Part shown: positions 6,343 through 15,185 of the stretch, in pieces
How positions within the stretch are numbered: position 1 is the stretch's first letter
How the letters are laid out: each line of letters starts with the position of its first letter
Source: Methanofastidiosum sp.
GTDB lineage: Archaea; Methanobacteriota_B; Thermococci; Methanofastidiosales; Methanofastidiosaceae
DNA: 64,000 bases
Direction of reading: 5' to 3'
Assembly: GCA_020854815.1 (NCBI GenBank)
Contig: JAHKLW010000019.1
Coordinates: 10,571 to 74,570, forward strand
The notes under the pieces: generated by a model
The model's input: only the letters and a program-made list of their open reading frames with translations
The model's database searches: none
Told to the model about the DNA's origin: nothing
Made by a program: the position numbers and the translations under genes

Positions 6343-6417
6343 GGGACCGTGGGGTAGCTTGGCCCATCCTTTTGGCTTCGGGAGCCAGAAACCTGAGTTC
6401 AAATCTCGGCGGTCCCA
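6343..6417 (+). tRNA. tRNA-Pro (anticodon CGG)
   Basis: I hand-folded it. Acceptor stem GGGACCG/CGGTCCC, U8, D-loop with A14/G18G19/A21, anticodon stem TTGGC/GCCAG with loop TTCGGGA (U33, CGG, G37), T-arm CTGAG-TTCAAAT-CTCGG, discriminator A. CCA is not encoded, and there is no intron. An AT-rich TATA-like stretch lies about 25 nt upstream. Confidence 0.7.
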
Positions 6418-9312: not shown

Positions 9313-9654
9313 TTATTTTAAAAGTGCAGGATCTCTTTTATCGATATATTCTTTTATTGCTTCTTCGACAGTTGAACTTCTTTCCCCAGTATTTAGTGCT
9401 ACTTTTATGGATCTTGGAATGCCCAACTTATCTTTTATTAACGTGTCTAGAGCATTTACAAGTTCTTCGTCAAGTGAAAAACTTTTAATTATCTTTTTCT
9501 TTTTATATAGAGACTTTTCTTCTTCTTTATGTGTAAAGCGTTGGGTCATTATTTCCTTTTTTTCCTTCTCGTGATCAATTTCCTCTTTAGTTAGGATAAC
9601 TCTTCTTTGTATTTCTTTCTCCAAATCATTCTTTAACCCGTCAGTTAAGGCCAT
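9313..9654 (-). CDS. Ribbon-helix-helix DNA-binding protein (ParG-like partner)
   Basis: C-terminal 'SFSLDEELVNALDTLIK' is a typical RHH beta-strand and helix. It lies immediately downstream of parA, with a TGATG start/stop overlap. The start is ambiguous between 9681, 9657 and 9654. Confidence 0.55.
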   Translation of the reverse strand: MALTDGLKNDLEKEIQRRVILTKEEIDHEKEKKEIMTQRFTHKEEEKSLYKKKKIIKSFSLDEELVNALDTLIKDKLGIPRSIKVALNTGERSSTVEEAIKEYIDKRDPALLK

Positions 9655-10397
9655 CATATCCCCTCCAATACTCTTTTGCACAATTGAATATAATCATAGG
9701 CTCCTCTTGAGTTCAAAGAATGTTCAAATATAGTCTTTCCAAGAGCGAAACTTTCAGATAATTTAGTATCAATTCGGATATATGGGCTTATTATGCCCTT
9801 AAAATGGTCCATCCCATCAAAGAATTCAAGATATTCTTTAGTTCTTTTTACCCTTTCATCTACAAATGTTGGAACAATAAGGTCTATTTTCAGATCTTTT
9901 TGGAAGTCTTCTCTTAAATCATAAATAAGTTTGTCAACTTTGAAAAGACCTTTTACTGAAAGATATTCCATTGAGACTGGCACAAGTAGCTTTTTACAAA
10001 AATTTAGTGCATTTTCGTTAAGTATTCCGAGTCCTGTTTGACAGTCTATGAGTGCAAAGTCATAGTTAATTCCTTCTAGGCGCTTCTTTAAAGCATTCTC
10101 TCTATTTCTCCAACCTACCATTTCTAGGGCAACTTGAGATATTGTTTCGTCTGATGCCAATAAATCCAAGTTCTTTCTAGCACCCACAATACATTCCTCA
10201 AAAGGTGCTTCGTCTTTTAGTAGATGATAAATGCTTTTAGTAAATTTAACTCCCAAACATTCTGCATCGTTACCTTGATCATCTATATCTATAATGAGTA
10301 CCTTTTTTCCAGTGAGCGCAAGCGCATGCCCTAGGTTTATAGTCGTGGTAGTTTTTCCAGTTCCACCTTTTTGATTGTATATGGCAATAGTTTCCAA
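9654..10397 (-). CDS. parA: ParA/ParF-type partition ATPase
   Basis: Deviant Walker A 'KGGTGKTTTTINLG' and 'IIDIDDQGN'. The likely start is the TTG at 10397, 4 nt after AGGTGA, giving '(M)ETIAIYNQKGG'. The track's ATG at 10433 adds 12 non-conserved residues. Confidence 0.8.
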   Translation of the reverse strand: METIAIYNQKGGTGKTTTTINLGHALALTGKKVLIIDIDDQGNDAECLGVKFTKSIYHLLKDEAPFEECIVGARKNLDLLASDETISQVALEMVGWRNRENALKKRLEGINYDFALIDCQTGLGILNENALNFCKKLLVPVSMEYLSVKGLFKVDKLIYDLREDFQKDLKIDLIVPTFVDERVKRTKEYLEFFDGMDHFKGIISPYIRIDTKLSESFALGKTIFEHSLNSRGAYDYIQLCKRVLEGI

Positions 10398-10435
10398 GAT
10401 ATCACCTATATTAATAAATATTATATAACACATAT

Positions 10436-10470
10436 TAGTTATTAATTGATATGTATTATATAATAACTAA
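10436..10470. repeat. Two TTAGTTATTA(A) motif copies in inverted orientation upstream of parA
   Basis: TTAGTTATTAA at 10436-10446 and its reverse complement at 10461-10470. Confidence 0.35.
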
Positions 10471-10637
10471 TAACATTATTTATAAGTGTTTTGGCCCTAA
10501 AAATGCATGTTTTTAACTGTTTAGAGTGGGCTAGTTAACGAAGAAACAACATTTAGACCAAGTATATAAATGAAGTGTAAAATATCTTCTATATGTAATA
10601 ATTAATAAATAATAAATATTAGCTAATAGCTATTAAT

Positions 10638-10931
10638 CTATTCAATTAGATTCCCATCTGGGTCTATTAGAATACCTTTTTTCTCAAGATTCTTTCTTAA
10701 TCTCCAAAAAGAAGTAGTTGAAATGCGTTTTTTTGCTTCTTTGAGAAATTTTTCAGCGTTTTTAGGGCTAATAAAGTGTCTTTTAACGAATTCTGTTTCT
10801 ACAAGCATTATCCTATTTTTTCTTCCGCCGCTACCTTTAGATTCTATTAATTTTATTTCACGTTCAATAGCTCTTATCAGTTCTTCTCTGGAAATACCAT
10901 ATTTTTTTGATAACTGGGTTTCTATATCCAA
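10638..10931 (-). CDS. Small basic putative DNA-binding protein
   Basis: 97 aa and Lys/Arg-rich, with a helical 'GISREELIRAIEREI' segment. No confident family assignment. Confidence 0.3.
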   Translation of the reverse strand: MDIETQLSKKYGISREELIRAIEREIKLIESKGSGGRKNRIMLVETEFVKRHFISPKNAEKFLKEAKKRISTTSFWRLRKNLEKKGILIDPDGNLIE

Positions 10932-11117
10932 TAATAAGCCTCCTGCATTTCAAAATTCTGTATTTTGAAATAGAAGAAGTTAATCTATTAATAAGTGTTA
11001 GCTTTTAGGGTTCTTATGCAAATTCGAGGCTTTTGCCGTTTTTGCAATAAAATTTCTTCTGGTTATGCATTTCGAGGTCTGGAATGTATTTTCTAAAAAT
11101 TTGATTAAAATAGGAGA

Positions 11118-11438
11118 GTGATAAATATGGAAAATGTAGAAAAAACAGATAAAAATATAAATAAAAAAGAAAATTCAAAAAGAAACGAAGATAAAGAAAA
11201 TGGAGATAATATGGTAAGAAAAAAAGCAATATCTCGACCGTTTAGAAGTTCTTTGGACATAGCCCCAGTGTTAATAGCTTTTGTAGCAGGTGCTATGTTT
11301 TTGACGGGATTTCTTTTTTCGATAGTTTACATATCAAAAGGAATATCGTCCATCATTGAATTTTTATCAAGTTTTGGTATGGTTATATTAGCCATTGCAC
11401 TTTTGGGGATAGCAATACTTTCGTTCATACGAAGATAG
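11118..11438 (+). CDS. Small membrane protein (inside IS element)
   Basis: Charged N-terminus followed by 2 TM helices. Confidence 0.35.
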   Translation: MINMENVEKTDKNINKKENSKRNEDKENGDNMVRKKAISRPFRSSLDIAPVLIAFVAGAMFLTGFLFSIVYISKGISSIIEFLSSFGMVILAIALLGIAILSFIRR

Positions 11439-11446
11439 GGATATTA

Positions 11447-11737
11447 ATGGATATTAATGACTTATTAAAAATACTTTTAGAAGAGTCAAAGATTAAAGTA
11501 TTTTTAGGAGTATTAATATTCATATTTTCACTTACAATTTATTCAAATTTTTACAAAAATGATTTAATGAGATTAACAGAAATAAATAGGTCTAATACTA
11601 TCGAAATGATTTTTCAAATGTTTATTATTGGGGCGATTCCTACTTTTTTGATAATTTTGATACTTACTAGTGGGTTATATTTACTTTATTATCTTGTAAC
11701 AAAACATCCAGAGGATAGATGGAGACCTACTCAATAG
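11447..11737 (+). CDS. Small membrane protein (inside IS element)
   Basis: 2-3 TM helices; no family recognised. Confidence 0.35.
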   Translation: MDINDLLKILLEESKIKVFLGVLIFIFSLTIYSNFYKNDLMRLTEINRSNTIEMIFQMFIIGAIPTFLIILILTSGLYLLYYLVTKHPEDRWRPTQ

Positions 11738-11921
11738 AAAATAAAAAATAAAAGTTACTGCTTTCTTACAACAATAACTTTCTCACCGTTCACAAACTCA
11801 ACATCCCAAGACAATGTGTCGCCGTTTTTTAGTTCCATCAACTGGCTTATTGCCGTTGGGATTATTGTCTTTAGGGAGTTGTACCCACTTTTTACATAAG
11901 ATACCTTGCTTGTTACCTTAC

Positions 11922-13088
11922 TCATCTTTTCACCTTAACACTCTGTTTGATAAGACCTTCCCACTTGTTGCCTTCCAAGCCCAGTTCAATGCCTGCCATC
12001 TGTGCGGGTGTCTTGCCATTCAAAGCTTGGTGTGGTCTTATGAAGTTGTAATACGCCTTGAAGCCGTCAACAAAGTCCTTTGAAGGCTCGACCTTCTTCA
12101 ATCCTCTCTGCACTTTGTTCCTCTGCCTCATCGAACCGTGAAGCCTTTCTATCTTGTTGTTGTTCCGTTCCTTGTTTGTGATTGCTATTTCCCTGATGTG
12201 CGTTGTGTTCCTCCCGTCGCCTTTTCGGTGTGTCTGGAACTCTTTTCTTACCGCTTCTTGGTAGGCATTAAGGCCGTCAGAAACTAAAATGGTTGGCGTA
12301 ATTCCAGTCACTTGCTTTGCCTCTTTCATCGGCAGTCTTGCGGTATCGACATCCCTTGTCTTACCTTCCGAAATCATGGACGAAATAAGAAAGCGTGTAT
12401 CCGTGTCCATCAAGTTCCAGAGCCAGTTCCATTCACCGTTACACTTCAAGGCCATCTCGTCTATCGCCCACATGCCGGACACGTCGGGAGTAAGTGTCCT
12501 TGTATAGTCTGAAATCAAGGATAGGTATTTTCTTATCCATCGTGATACTGTGGACTGATTGACGGTCACGTTGTAGAACTGTGCCAAGTGCTGTGCTATG
12601 TCGTTCTGTGACACGCCTTTGAAGTACAAATCAAGAGAGAGGACTATTACCCTCTGGTCGCTTGTGTTGTACTTGAACCCGTCATCAATAGAGAATCGCT
12701 TGTTACAGTCCTTGCACTGGTACATCTGCTTCATGTTGTTCTTATTCTTTCTAAATCCTTTCTTTGATAGATTGGTAGAGTTGCAGTTCGGGCATTTTGT
12801 TTTTGTGTCCTTTTTTGGTGTGAATATTCTTGCCTTTGCTTCATCTTCAATCCTGTTTTTCAACTTCATCCAGAATTTCACGGCGTTGATATGCTTGCAC
12901 TCTGCATGCCTATAGAAGTGGTCGGGACAATTGCATGTCCAGACTTTGTAGCCGTGCCTTACCAAATAATACCCTTTTCCACTTTGCGAGTGGATTTTAA
13001 ACTTGTCGTGACTGACCTCGATTGGTTCGTCACCCTTGGCTATGATTGCATAGCCCCTAATCATTCTACTGTTTGTGGTTAATACCAT
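11922..13088 (-). CDS. DDE transposase, IS6-family-like with N-terminal SWIM/zinc-ribbon extension
   Basis: Catalytic triad context 'WAIDEM', 'ILVSDGLNAY', and 'NNNKIERLHGSMRQR', an IS26-like E-x6-R signature. N-terminal 'CNCPDHFYRHAECKH' and 'CPNC...CKDC' zinc fingers. This block is about 47% GC against about 32% around it. Confidence 0.7.
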   Translation of the reverse strand: MVLTTNSRMIRGYAIIAKGDEPIEVSHDKFKIHSQSGKGYYLVRHGYKVWTCNCPDHFYRHAECKHINAVKFWMKLKNRIEDEAKARIFTPKKDTKTKCPNCNSTNLSKKGFRKNKNNMKQMYQCKDCNKRFSIDDGFKYNTSDQRVIVLSLDLYFKGVSQNDIAQHLAQFYNVTVNQSTVSRWIRKYLSLISDYTRTLTPDVSGMWAIDEMALKCNGEWNWLWNLMDTDTRFLISSMISEGKTRDVDTARLPMKEAKQVTGITPTILVSDGLNAYQEAVRKEFQTHRKGDGRNTTHIREIAITNKERNNNKIERLHGSMRQRNKVQRGLKKVEPSKDFVDGFKAYYNFIRPHQALNGKTPAQMAGIELGLEGNKWEGLIKQSVKVKR

Positions 13089-13178
13089 TTCATCGCCATA
13101 AACTTGTAGGCTTTTCTAGTATTTAAGCTTTACGGTAGGAATTACTACCTAAAATATAAGATAAAAGGAGGTTGTTGT

Positions 13179-13337
13179 ATGAGAAAAATAATTGGGATTC
13201 TAAACAAACAAGTAAATATAGGGCATGAAAGACATATGAAATTATGGGAAGTGTTATTTTTTATACTCACATTTTTTTGGGGAGTTATTCTTGTTGAGAT
13301 TATTGACTTCATCGTTGTTACTTTTTTGTTGGATTAG
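13179..13337 (+). CDS. Possible 52-aa membrane peptide with strong SD
   Basis: AAGGAGG at 13165-13171 sits 7 nt before the ATG. It is hydrophobic, and it overlaps the 3' end of the 13254..13811 ORF convergently. Confidence 0.25.
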   Translation: MRKIIGILNKQVNIGHERHMKLWEVLFFILTFFWGVILVEIIDFIVVTFLLD

Positions 13338-13811
13338 AGCCAATACAGTTAGTATGAATATTATTATCGCTATGGTAAGTACATAATAAAAAAATCTTAT
13401 TGCCTCTTTTGTTTTGTCAATAACATCAGTATAATTGGATATGCCTCCAACTATAATCGCGGAACTTGAACGCGTACAAACATTGAAAATACAAATAGAG
13501 AATGCTATTAATACAACATACATAAATTTGCTTAGTCTATACCTTTCTTCTTTATATAAATAGATTAATGCTATTAAAATAAATCCAAGTATTGTAAGGC
13601 TAGATTGAATCATTACAGAATTAAGCAACACTAACTTATCAATCAACAAATTATTAATGGATACGTTCTCATTTTGTTCGATGGGAATGATATTTAGAAC
13701 ACTATCTAAATCTGGTAAAACATATAAATTCATAATCACTAAAGCAAATATAATAAATCCAAGATCTAACCAATTATCTTCAATAAAATTTTTGACCTTT
13801 TCAAAACACAT
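13254..13811 (-). CDS. Integral membrane protein (inside IS element)
   Basis: 185 aa with about 5 TM helices; no family recognised. Confidence 0.4.
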   Translation of the reverse strand: MCFEKVKNFIEDNWLDLGFIIFALVIMNLYVLPDLDSVLNIIPIEQNENVSINNLLIDKLVLLNSVMIQSSLTILGFILIALIYLYKEERYRLSKFMYVVLIAFSICIFNVCTRSSSAIIVGGISNYTDVIDKTKEAIRFFYYVLTIAIIIFILTVLALIQQKSNNDEVNNLNKNNSPKKCEYKK

Positions 13812-13907
13812 ACATCATTTTTTTATCAACTACTTTATATTTTAACCCTACATTCTTTGCGAAAGTTTCAAATTATTTCAATTAATCTTATTAAGAAGCA
13901 AATTAAT

Positions 13908-13951
13908 CTATAATAGTCCGCTGAAAGTGGTTAAGGACATTTCATCGCCAT
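13908..13951 (-). pseudogene. Remnant of transposase 5' end
   Basis: The sequence ATGGCGATGAAATGtccTTAACCAC matches the 5' region ATGGCGATGAAATGgtaTTAACCAC of the intact transposase at 13078-13102. The reading frame ends after 10 codons. Confidence 0.6.
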
Positions 13952-14125
13952 GATTGTTCTTGCTACCAGCATAGGACTTTTTGCAATAAATTTACAACGA
14001 GACCTCGACTTGCATAAGGGATTTTAGTAAAAGTCTAGGTCACGAATTTGCATAAGAACCGCTTTTAGAGTATTAGGCTATAAATTAGTAATAAAATCTT
14101 TTATATATAAATTTATATATTATAA

Positions 14126-14740
14126 ATGTCAATCTTAATATCTGGTGTTCATTTGAAGATACAGGTATACGGATATATTGAAGGAAATGGAGTAAAACTA
14201 GTTGTTAAACCTGCGACTAAACTATTACCTGAAATGTTCAAAGAATATTTGAGAGATATGAAGAAATTTTTCTTTGTATATAACAGAAATATTGATGCCA
14301 ATGAAGTTACTATAAAGAATCCAAAACAGCTTGTAGCTCTATTAAACTATTTTGATAAAAATTATAGGGTTTCCGGAGAATTAGAAGGTACAAAATTATA
14401 CTCTTGGGAAGACATGGGGCTTTTTTTGAATGAGACTATAGATGTTCTAAAAATGAAATCTTTAGAAAGAAAGAATCATAAAATCATTGTTTATTGTTCT
14501 AGGATTGATACTCAATTTATGGTTAAAATATATGGTGAGAAATTGCCAGAATGGATGAGAACTTATGACAAAATAGACAGGGATAAAGTTGTAGAAGACT
14601 TACTTAATGAATCCAATATTAAATTCATCAAAGAAACTGTGGGAGATAAAAGGATATATTATATTGATGAAATCCCTGAAAAACTAGAAGAATGGTTGTC
14701 ACTTAAGGATAAGTTTATAGAGAAATATTCTGCATTATAA
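14126..14740 (+). CDS. Hypothetical protein
   Basis: 204 aa and soluble; family unknown. A 4-nt gap separates it from the next gene. Confidence 0.35.
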   Translation: MSILISGVHLKIQVYGYIEGNGVKLVVKPATKLLPEMFKEYLRDMKKFFFVYNRNIDANEVTIKNPKQLVALLNYFDKNYRVSGELEGTKLYSWEDMGLFLNETIDVLKMKSLERKNHKIIVYCSRIDTQFMVKIYGEKLPEWMRTYDKIDRDKVVEDLLNESNIKFIKETVGDKRIYYIDEIPEKLEEWLSLKDKFIEKYSAL

Positions 14741-14744
14741 AATA

Positions 14745-15185
14745 ATGCAAAAAGGAATCTATTCATTGATTTTAATACTTGAAAATGACCAATATATTGA
14801 AATAGGAAAACTAGGGAATTTTTTATTCAAGAAAGGTTATTATGTATATAACGGTAGCGCTCTTGGTGGATTTGGCAGGGTAAGATACCATCTAAATAAA
14901 AATAAACTTAAAAGGTGGCATATAGACTATCTTCTAGATAAGGCCAAAATAATTAAAATTATCACTTGTGAAATTAATAAAAATCTTGAGCATGATGTCT
15001 CAAAAGGCATGTCTGATAAAAAAGACGCAGAAATTTTGGTACCTGGATTTGGATCATCAGACTGCAGTAAAGGTTGTGCTTCACATTTAATTTATTTCAA
15101 AGAGATGCAACAAATAGATGAAATATATGAAAAATTGGGCCTAAATTTTTTTATCTTTGAAGAAGCTGATTTTAAGAACATATAG
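14745..15185 (+). CDS. GIY-YIG nuclease-superfamily protein (DUF123-like)
   Basis: 'KGIYSLIL...GKLGNF...KGYYVYNGSALGG' fits a GIY...YIG-type motif spacing. Confidence 0.45.
   Translation: MQKGIYSLILILENDQYIEIGKLGNFLFKKGYYVYNGSALGGFGRVRYHLNKNKLKRWHIDYLLDKAKIIKIITCEINKNLEHDVSKGMSDKKDAEILVPGFGSSDCSKGCASHLIYFKEMQQIDEIYEKLGLNFFIFEEADFKNI

Follow-up and report, generated by a model that had tools for sequence, protein, structure and literature searches.

A cargo-carrying IS6-like transposon of Methanofastidiosum and its archaeal relatives, inserted next to host promoters

Structure and gene content of the element

The stretch of 64,000 nucleotides analysed here (the window), taken from Methanofastidiosum sp. 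contig JAHKLW010000019.1, harbours between positions 11009 and 14060 a mobile element of 3,052 bp, which is best described as an IS6-like cargo transposon of archaea that follows a promoter-adjacent target rule. Its transposase-distal end is formed by the 18-bp terminal inverted repeat (IR) GGTTCTTATGCAAATTCG (11009-11026, plus strand) and its transposase-proximal end by the exact reverse complement (14043-14060, minus strand), and two copies of an 8-bp target-site duplication, GCTTTTAG, are located directly outside of these repeats at 11001-11008 and 14061-14068. An earlier, sequence-only reading of this DNA had proposed both the IRs and the duplication; direct reading reproduced them at the same positions, with a repeat finder returning the same 18/18 arms. 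Tolerating up to three mismatches, the two end copies are the sole matches to the 18-mer in the window (0.07 matches expected in shuffles, two matches reached in 0 of 100), and no internal copy was found within the element at up to five mismatches. The end motif recurs subterminally at both ends, as GGTTATGCATTTCGAGGTC at 11062-11080 (plus strand), probably a second transposase-binding site, and at 14000-14018 (minus strand); the repeat finder reported an inverted pair at 11063-11080 and 14000-14017 with 89% complementarity. The motif TTTTTGCAATAAAATT, situated between the terminal and subterminal repeats at 11039-11054 (plus strand) and found again at 13978-13993, is a possible TATA-like promoter element for inward transcription, and the sequence that both ends have in common at these positions is TTTTTGCAATAAA(A)TT. 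The subterminal repeats and the shared motif, likewise put forward in the sequence-only reading, are real.

Five genes are packed into the 3,052 bp, encoding deduced proteins of 106, 96, 56, 388 and 185 amino acid residues. The 388-residue protein (11922-13088, minus strand) is the transposase, in which a SWIM-like motif CxCx9CxH (C52-H66), a zinc ribbon (C99/C102/C125/C128) and a helix-turn-helix (HTH) are combined with a DDE domain comprising D210, D271 and E314, plus R321. These four residues are invariant across 19 aligned relatives, all of which also keep the N-terminal zinc-binding domains. The closest transposases are 85-86% identical to that of the window and include those of two sister elements used below for comparison, namely an element of 3,162 bp with ends GGTTCTTATTCGTTTTCG present in seven Methanofastidiosum contigs (L001-L007; hereafter MF) and the element at locus L011. 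The layout of a terminal plus a subterminal repeat is found at both ends of MF and L011 as well.

The fifth gene, missed by the sequence-only reading, encodes a SpoVT/AbrB-like protein of 56 residues (11755-11925, minus strand), and its start overlaps the transposase stop by 4 bp. The protein is 76, 89 and 56% identical to its counterparts in MF, L011 and L015, respectively. A profile built from it matched AbrB/SpoVT structures only, and weakly (E 0.03-0.4), and three of its relatives match Pfam MazE_antitoxin with E values up to 2.7e-6. The gene is coupled to the transposase gene and conserved together with it, and likely encodes a DNA-binding accessory protein or regulator. A near-palindrome, GGTAGGAATTACTACC (13134-13149), lies just upstream of the transposase promoter region and has palindromic equivalents at the same place in MF (where it is perfect), L034, L041 and L085; it is a candidate operator.

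The three remaining genes are hydrophobic passengers with about two, three and four predicted membrane segments, respectively (Kyte-Doolittle windows), which bears out the three membrane-protein genes of the sequence-only reading. The first (106 residues, or 103 from an ATG at 11127; 11118-11438, plus strand) has a lysine-rich N-terminus and is 28% identical to the product of a 103-residue gene that sits at the opposite end of MF. The second (96 residues; 11447-11737, plus strand) gave no family above cut-off in Pfam and NCBIfam scans. The third (185 residues; 13254-13811, minus strand) is a near-orphan: a word-indexed search returned only the protein itself, a full HMMER scan of 1.84 billion representatives found four relatives at E<=1e-3, and the passengers of MF and L011 are 23-30% identical to it. 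As a guess, such membrane proteins might have an addiction or exclusion role, in analogy to the relatives described below, whose cargo includes defence and toxin-antitoxin genes.

Two further features adjoin the 185-residue gene. The 5' end of the transposase gene (25 nt, 13075-13099, minus strand) is repeated with 88% identity at 13927-13951 (minus strand), upstream of this passenger, and such a copy precedes the 185/186-residue passenger module in the window, MF (L001) and L011, in each case matching the element's own transposase start; in MF it is found at the opposite end and inverted. The copy might be the scar of a capture event or else a regulatory site in shared use. It lies within a module of about 150 bp (13820-13976, minus strand) which contains TTAAAATATAAAG, likely a TATA box, and which is 91-92% identical in L001-L007 and L011 (over about 115-150 bp), where the coding regions cannot be aligned at the DNA level. 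The G+C content of the transposase and AbrB-like core (11750-13130) is 43%, against 27-28% for the cargo and 35% for the window overall, and the same contrast exists in MF and L011; this suggests either a core that moves between AT-rich shells or one under different constraint. An Rfam scan of the window gave one tRNA (6343-6417) and no other match.

That the element is inserted as one unit can be read from related genomes. The 204-residue protein gene flanking it is conserved in Methanofastidiosum, and its homologues (~85% identical) led to three contigs, L151, L152 and L153, in which this gene and the gene of a 97-residue protein are divergent neighbours separated by 161 nt. The intergenic DNA of these contigs aligns without gaps to the left flank of the window, one 8-mer and the right flank; the single GCTTTTAG copy is uninterrupted, and the whole 3,052 bp, passengers included, are absent. 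The sequence-only reading had named comparison with such an empty site as a check, which the element passes in all three contigs. The identical 18-mer also ends sister elements in L101, L112 and L117. With these empty sites and with sister elements flanked by their own 8-bp duplications, the element is therefore a genuine insertion. The exact empty-site pattern had no match in metagenome contigs, and the element is present in all other metagenome contigs whose flanks are identical to those of the window. In one assembly (ENA ERZ27252305), contigs L093 and L096 break inside the transposase gene and overlap at window 12692-12716, and L097 ends exactly at the element boundary, 11008; such breaks would fit copies that are repeated or polymorphic within the community.

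The sequence-only reading had left the choice between a transposon-like insertion sequence (IS) and a rearranged composite, in which two IS copies, or an IS and a solo end, would have trapped host membrane-protein genes. The difference in G+C content between core and cargo, the duplicated 25-nt fragment near the right end and the occurrence of solo ends and transposase-less cassettes among relatives would fit a composite. It is nevertheless very improbable: there is a single transposase gene with no internal IR copy, the perfect IRs and the duplication stand at the outer ends of exactly the DNA missing from the empty sites, and the arrangement of cargo, core and cargo within one IR pair and one duplication recurs in 40 elements. 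The first half of that alternative, a transposon-like IS with passengers, is what stands. Coincidental repeats of an AT-rich, low-complexity host locus, a view with no other support, can be dismissed on account of the shuffles, the empty sites and the homologous ends in other genomes.

IS6 affiliation and a clade of cargo-carrying relatives

The IS6 affinity of the transposase is indicated by Pfam DDE_Tnp_IS240 (PF13610; 58.8 bits against a cut-off of 27, E=8.7e-16) and by NCBIfam transpos_IS6 (NF033587; 114.4 bits, E=5.6e-33), which is the best-scoring transposase model. The best annotated relatives are clostridial IS6 transposases of the ISCpe7 type (E=5e-26; 28% identical over residues 86-367); IS1216, ISS1 and other IS6-family types come next, with 21-25% identity. 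IS6 elements are bounded by IRs of 15-20 bp that start with GG and contain cTGTt and caaa motifs (PMC7986276); accordingly, GGTTCTTATGCAAATTCG starts with GG and contains TGCAAA, with T at position 7 where most members of the clade described below have G (GGTTCTGTTGC...). Together with the 8-bp duplication, these observations uphold the IS6 affinity claimed in the sequence-only reading. The whole-protein IS1 model was reached with 68.6 of the 100 bits required and no Pfam IS1 DDE domain was matched; the zinc ribbon matches the N-terminal domain of IS1/IS1595 transposases (NF050000; 31.6 bits against a cut-off of 28), and one relative bears the NCBI name 'IS1/IS6 family transposase'. An exact look-up of the 388-residue protein retrieved no record and a sequence search of solved structures no match, and an AlphaFold model of moderate quality (pLDDT 70) resembled generic DDE transposases and integrases.

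Two of these results speak against a place within IS6 proper. The transpos_IS6 score remains below the 125-bit cut-off of this curated equivalog model, and the identity to bacterial IS6 transposases is just 21-28%, below the approximately 40% or more that unites the bacterial core of the family (PMC7986276). Further, the known members are compact, single-gene elements of 0.7-1.8 kb, compared with 3,052 bp and five genes here, in agreement with the remark of the sequence-only reading that the unit is far larger than a typical IS6. Given the low identity and the sub-cut-off score, the element belongs, on sequence grounds, at the periphery of the IS6 family.

A profile built from 19 transposases and searched against species-representative genomes detected 384 relatives, nearly all in archaeal metagenome-assembled genomes (MAGs), of which 79 loci were kept; at the protein level, the relatives number about 500 clusters. 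The hosts comprise Methanofastidiosum, Methanothrix, Methanoregula, Bathyarchaeia, Thermoplasmatota, Nitrososphaerales and Archaeoglobaceae. Elements were delimited by IRs flanking the transposase and perfect identity of the 8-bp flanks, which yielded 40: 35 from 84 loci, plus the window element, L117, L120, L137 and L144. All 40 are bounded by perfect 8-bp duplications, most ends begin with GGTTCTG, and the lengths range from 2,234 to 6,570 bp (median 3,996). In all of them variable cargo flanks the transposase on either side, and none is a bare IS; large size with cargo is thus the rule for the whole archaeal clade. Restriction-modification and toxin-antitoxin genes are frequent among the cargo, and Pfam assignments for 124 passenger open reading frames (ORFs) include N6_N4_Mtase and SocA_Panacea (four each), MazE (three), PIN (two) and single matches to MvaI_BcnI, Eco57I, MmeI-type, GmrSD_N, Mrr, HNH, Fic, HEPN and ParB_N. 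Small DNA-binding genes often adjoin the transposase gene and are AbrB-like, DUF2080 ('putative transposon-encoded protein') or ribbon-helix-helix (RHH) genes. DUF2080 or RHH takes the place of the AbrB-like gene at loci L131-L136 (P0110) and L137-L143 (P0104); the P0110 elements also carry an SMC_N-like gene of 640 codons, and no pair of IRs with duplication was found at the P0110 loci. Viral contigs scanned with the transposase profile gave five loci, none of them delimitable.

The nearest catalogued elements are those of the long-transposase branch of IS6 (ISCpe7 group; clade h of Varani et al., 2021; clade VII of Harmer and Hall, 2019), with which the clade shares DDE_Tnp_IS240, an N-terminal zinc-binding CxxC extension with HTH, GG-starting ends with TGCAAA and the 8-bp duplication. 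It differs in the additional N-terminal SWIM-like domain, in the small DNA-binding partner genes (AbrB-like, DUF2080, RHH) and in size and content (2.2-6.6 kb with 3-9 extra genes, compared with 0.7-1.8 kb and one ORF); only one passenger-carrying member, ISDsp3, has been reported for IS6 (PMC7986276). Catalogued archaeal IS6-type elements (the ISPfu group and halobacterial elements) likewise have archaeal hosts, GG-type ends of ~18 bp and 8-bp duplications (PMC6807381; PMC7986276), but are short, with transposase genes of ~700-750 bp (clades Ai and Aii) and no zinc-finger extension or cargo reported. Judged by domain architecture, the window transposase would stand nearer to the clostridial long branch than to these archaeal members.

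Comparison of sister elements suggests how the cargo changes. The transposases (85-86%) and AbrB-like proteins (76-89%) of the window, MF and L011 elements are similar and the module upstream of the 185/186-residue gene is 91-92% identical, whereas their homologous membrane passengers are just 23-30% identical. The two cargo modules of MF are at opposite ends relative to the window, and L011 has an extra gene of 187 codons. An inversion of the MF core relative to its ends was considered and rejected after the end structures were aligned: these keep their relation to the transposase, and it is the cargo modules that switched sides. The cargo therefore appears, from these alignments, to behave as exchangeable cassettes. 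In L001 and L004, MF is flanked on both sides by CTTCAGCT; the other five contigs (L002, L003, L005, L006 and L007) have the same right junction with a different left flank (the ahaH side of an A-type ATPase locus, in place of an aminotransferase gene) and no duplication, which reflects either recombination between two copies, i.e. IS-mediated rearrangement, or assembly chimeras. The elements L117 (2,716 bp, duplication CATAACGG) and L120 (2,877 bp, duplication CCGTGGTT) are further sisters, and the former also ends with the 18-mer of the window.

A scan of metagenome contigs with the IR gave 18 matches, one of which (L102) is the window locus itself. Contig L101, from the same sample as the window-locus contigs L095 and L102, has a different flank and is 93% identical to the window over 126 bp, after which a different ORF follows from the same start codon; L112 is related to the window at 83%. 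The motif TTTTTGCAATAAAATT is kept in L101, L112 and the right end of MF. Loci L099:1736-2448 and L103:2607-3319 are the same transposase-less unit of 713 bp with one ORF of 120 codons, IS6-type ends (GGTTCTTATTCATTTTCG and GGTTCTTATGCAAATTCG) and subterminal repeats. Its flanks show no matching 8-bp duplication, and the unit resembles a mobile insertion cassette (MIC) of this family. The sequence-only reading had raised the question of a short version without passengers: this unit is short and lacks the transposase, and no passenger-free autonomous version was found among the relatives. The matches in L104, L110 and L113 are due to chance, within a gene that has no relation to the transposon and consists of many repeats with a period of 21 nt (GGTTCTTATGCNAAYTCN...), and the remaining ones are isolated, with no similarity beyond the IR. 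Two matches of the IR in viral contigs (L012 and L013) are also due to chance, and the left junction had none there.

Insertion sites and arrays

When the flanks of the delimited elements were aligned, many sites showed a TATA-like box at a constant distance, and at others the neighbour was the IR of a further element, the two ends being exactly 8 bp apart. TATA-like 8-mers (<=1 mismatch to TTTAWAWA on either strand) are present at 0.5% of the positions in host DNA. In 14 of the 29 discovery sites such a box is found exactly 5 bp beyond the duplication, and the positional histogram shows one peak only, at -13/+13. After removal of orthologous sites (L017/L019/L068 and L117/L120/L011), the count is 17/37 independent sites under a strict (P=1e-24) and 26/37 under a relaxed definition (P=2e-22); the ten held-out sites, found after the hypothesis had been formed, gave 4/10 (P=1.9e-6) and 7/10, respectively. 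The oriented consensus consists of the duplication, the last base of which is a purine in 23 of 30 cases, followed by wAAnn and YTTAWAWA, and by its sequence matches the archaeal motif B recognition element (BRE)/TATA. A host ORF of >=150 codons starts within 100 nt on the TATA side and reads away from the element at 17 of 30 sites, compared with 3 of 30 on the other side; insertion therefore takes place at the upstream edge of the core promoter, which the duplication keeps intact. Insertion between the TATA box and the start site, with the promoter reading into the element, was rejected since the host ORFs on the TATA side read away from it. In sum, the clade inserts with its duplication ending 5 bp upstream of a BRE/TATA-like motif of an outward-reading host gene.

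The genes so targeted encode Hsp20, thermosome subunits (hit in four lineages, each time with another duplicated 8-mer), EF-2 (in two related genomes that differ in the 8-mer), a proteasome subunit, ArsR/TrmB-type regulators, a beta-CASP RNase, a radical-SAM protein, an aminotransferase and a 2-oxoacid-dehydrogenase-like protein. Both orientations occur at one and the same site (L117 versus L120 and L011; L017 versus L068). Mimicry of the IR as the basis of TATA recognition was rejected, as the inner IR motifs vary among subclades and the target motif is constant. At L029 and L044, where no TATA-like box was found, the right flanks are similar G/C-rich palindromic sequences (CCCCCCAGGGGGTGGGGGGG...), which may belong to another repeat family or be an alternative target.

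Insertion leaves the TATA-proximal copy of the duplication at its distance of 5 bp from the box, and the site is therefore reusable. Indeed, repeated insertion at one site stacks elements separated by the same 8-mer, and wherever one side of an element abuts another element, its opposite side has a TATA-like box, although a weak one in L025 and L056. In the array at L017:1693-7049, CTTTATCA is followed by an end fragment and a transposase-less cassette of 735 bp with a single ORF of 168 codons, CTTTATCA again, an element of 4,259 bp and a third CTTTATCA, after which come 5 bp, TTTAATAG and a proteasome-subunit gene. The related Bathyarchaeia L019 and L068 have elements at the same host site, one of them in opposite orientation. 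Similarly, a solo end at L117:4065-4176 (87 bp aligned, 92% identical to the left end of the window element) is separated by exactly 8 bp, the duplication CATAACGG, from the 2,716-bp element; this solo end adjoins a tRNA-like sequence identified by eye.

The window element itself is located in the divergent promoter region between the 97-residue protein/ParA operon and the conserved gene for a protein of 195-204 residues. Outward from its left duplication follow TGTTA and then the TATA-like box TTAATAAG (plus-strand letters; 10988-10995, box on the minus strand), 5 bp from the duplication and conserved in the empty sites. It is presumed to be the promoter box of the 97-residue protein/ParA operon, which reads away from the element and whose AGGAGG Shine-Dalgarno sequence and TTG start lie 69 nt from the duplication. 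The transposase-distal end faces this promoter, and the element obeys the geometry of the clade, with a weak box. On the left, 9313-10931 contains genes for the 97-residue protein, a ParA-type ATPase and a protein of 122 residues, all on the minus strand; on the right, 14126-15185 contains the 195-204-residue protein gene and, after it, a GIY-YIG (DUF123) gene. The related contig L153, which is without the element, shows this gene order on either side as well.

Mechanism, known systems and significance

Taken as a whole, the explanation by an intact, IS6-related unit transposon with cargo in the chromosome of the Methanofastidiosum host, inclusive of its clade, target rule and stacking, is probably correct. 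Besides the family-level reservations given above, several points weigh against it. There is no second copy in the 64-kb window, and just 40 of ~115 examined loci with transposase matches could be delimited, the rest being on truncated contigs or having no clean duplication. The offset of the TATA-like box was noticed post hoc, which is answered by the ten held-out sites and by P values that withstand correction for ~90 offsets; five delimited elements (L029, L044, L045, L085 and L092) have no such box, and that of the window, TTAATAAG, has two mismatches to the strict pattern. Finally, the evidence consists of standing insertions in metagenome assemblies, which may be chimeric at repeats.

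As to the mechanism, the transposase would bind to the terminal and subterminal repeats and cut in the staggered manner of the IS6 family, with 8 bp between the cuts, and movement would probably proceed via cointegrates resolved by host recombination. No recombinase or resolvase is encoded among the ORFs of the element, which, together with the MF junctions lacking a duplication, fits the cointegrate route indirectly, without being a proof. The AbrB-like protein may regulate the transposase promoter through the adjacent palindrome (13134-13149), and recombination within the conserved end modules could be the way in which cargo is exchanged. The target might be chosen by tethering to a promoter bent and bound by TBP/TFB, a step to which we give an even chance. 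A bolder version would see in these elements the first DNA transposons of Archaea with promoter tethering: by docking on the TBP/TFB-DNA complex, the zinc-finger N-terminus of the transposase would direct integration to the upstream edge of that complex, with the duplication ending 5 bp short of the TATA box. Strong and stress promoters (those of thermosome, EF-2, proteasome and Hsp20 genes) would serve as reusable safe havens, where cargo transposons with defence, toxin-antitoxin or orphan membrane genes would accumulate and exchange cassettes. This version is put forward tentatively, as somewhat less probable than tethering alone.

The tethering step, and no other part of the explanation, has a serious competitor, in which the SWIM/zinc-ribbon/HTH N-terminus of the transposase itself reads wAAnn-YTTAWAWA and cuts 5 bp away, with promoters being struck solely for carrying the best matches to the motif. 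A well-defined motif at a distance fixed to the single base would be expected from such direct readout, as would zinc-binding domains kept in all 19 aligned relatives; the targets are all strong consensus promoters, a result that tethering predicts too. Nevertheless, transposases just 37-45% identical to each other, and with differing IRs, all strike the general promoter consensus, and the Bathyarchaeial elements use a variant box (CTTAATAG or CCTATTAA) that may track the local promoter consensus. Moreover, no insertion was seen in coding regions, despite TATA-like 8-mers occurring there at 0.5% per position, and DDE transposases do not usually recognise an asymmetric motif that lies beyond the duplication. 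Direct readout is left as a real contender, slightly behind tethering. Random insertion, with survivors only at harmless spots just upstream of promoters, is highly improbable: insertions that spare promoter and gene should indeed be better tolerated, and all data are standing copies and not de novo events, but selection cannot yield a 5-bp spacing exact to the base, independent hits with different 8-mers at the identical position of orthologous promoters (L117 versus L120, L018 versus L137, and the four thermosome promoters) or stacking with identical 8-bp spacers.

Tethering would have counterparts elsewhere. Integration guided by promoters or bound factors is known for Ty3, which is directed to Pol III start sites by TFIIIB, for Ty1 and Tf1, and for Tn7 at attTn7. 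The archaeal clade shares with them a fixed short distance from a landmark, a gene-sparing safe haven and repeated use of sites, and differs in enzyme family, in hosts and in the landmark, here an archaeal BRE/TATA motif with a possible role of TBP/TFB; the resemblance is mechanistic and does not imply membership. The IS6 reviews describe no sequence-specific target for the family (PMC7986276; PMC6807381).

In gene content, the clade resembles bacterial transporter insertion sequences (tIS) and unit transposons, which also enclose passengers in one IR pair with one transposase and are enriched in restriction-modification, toxin-antitoxin and defence genes. The passengers of the window element likewise lie within one IR pair, and its relatives carry restriction-modification and toxin-antitoxin cargo inside boundaries marked by IRs and duplication. 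Neither a Tn3-like resolvase/res site nor TnsABC-type machinery is present, and Tn3 elements, with IRs of ~38 bp, a 5-bp duplication, a large TnpA and a resolvase/res site, are unlike the one described here (18 bp, 8 bp, 388 residues and no recombinase). Relatives include transposase-less units of 713 and 735 bp with a single ORF and the same kind of IRs, comparable to MICs and miniature inverted-repeat transposable elements (MITEs); the window element, judged by its genes, would be autonomous and not such a unit. In a survey of 2019, DNA transposons with diverse passenger genes figured among those classes of elements for which no archaeal example had yet been detected (PMC6563490). The literature search found no prior description of SWIM/IS6 cargo transposons or of TATA-targeted insertion in archaea, which is suggestive and not conclusive; the clade is apparently a large, undescribed group of gene-carrying transposons.

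For the window, the analysis replaces what in the database record (MCC7572065-74, from a Candidatus Methanofastidiosum sp. MAG) are hypothetical proteins only with a clean annotation of a mobile element. Whereas the IS6 reviews know one passenger-carrying member (PMC7986276), carriage of cargo is the rule across the archaeal clade, and the restriction-modification and toxin-antitoxin genes that account for much of this cargo make it a plausible vehicle for the exchange of defence genes among uncultured archaea. The target rule predicts the locations of new insertions and explains assembly breaks at highly expressed genes; fixed insertion 5 bp upstream of BRE/TATA is sharply testable and might serve as a tool for site-directed integration in methanogens. 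If host factors mediate it, the rule would link transposition to the archaeal pre-initiation complex, and promoter tethering, if true, would be a prokaryotic analogue of Ty3/TFIIIB targeting in an archaeal counterpart of the bacterial cargo transposons.

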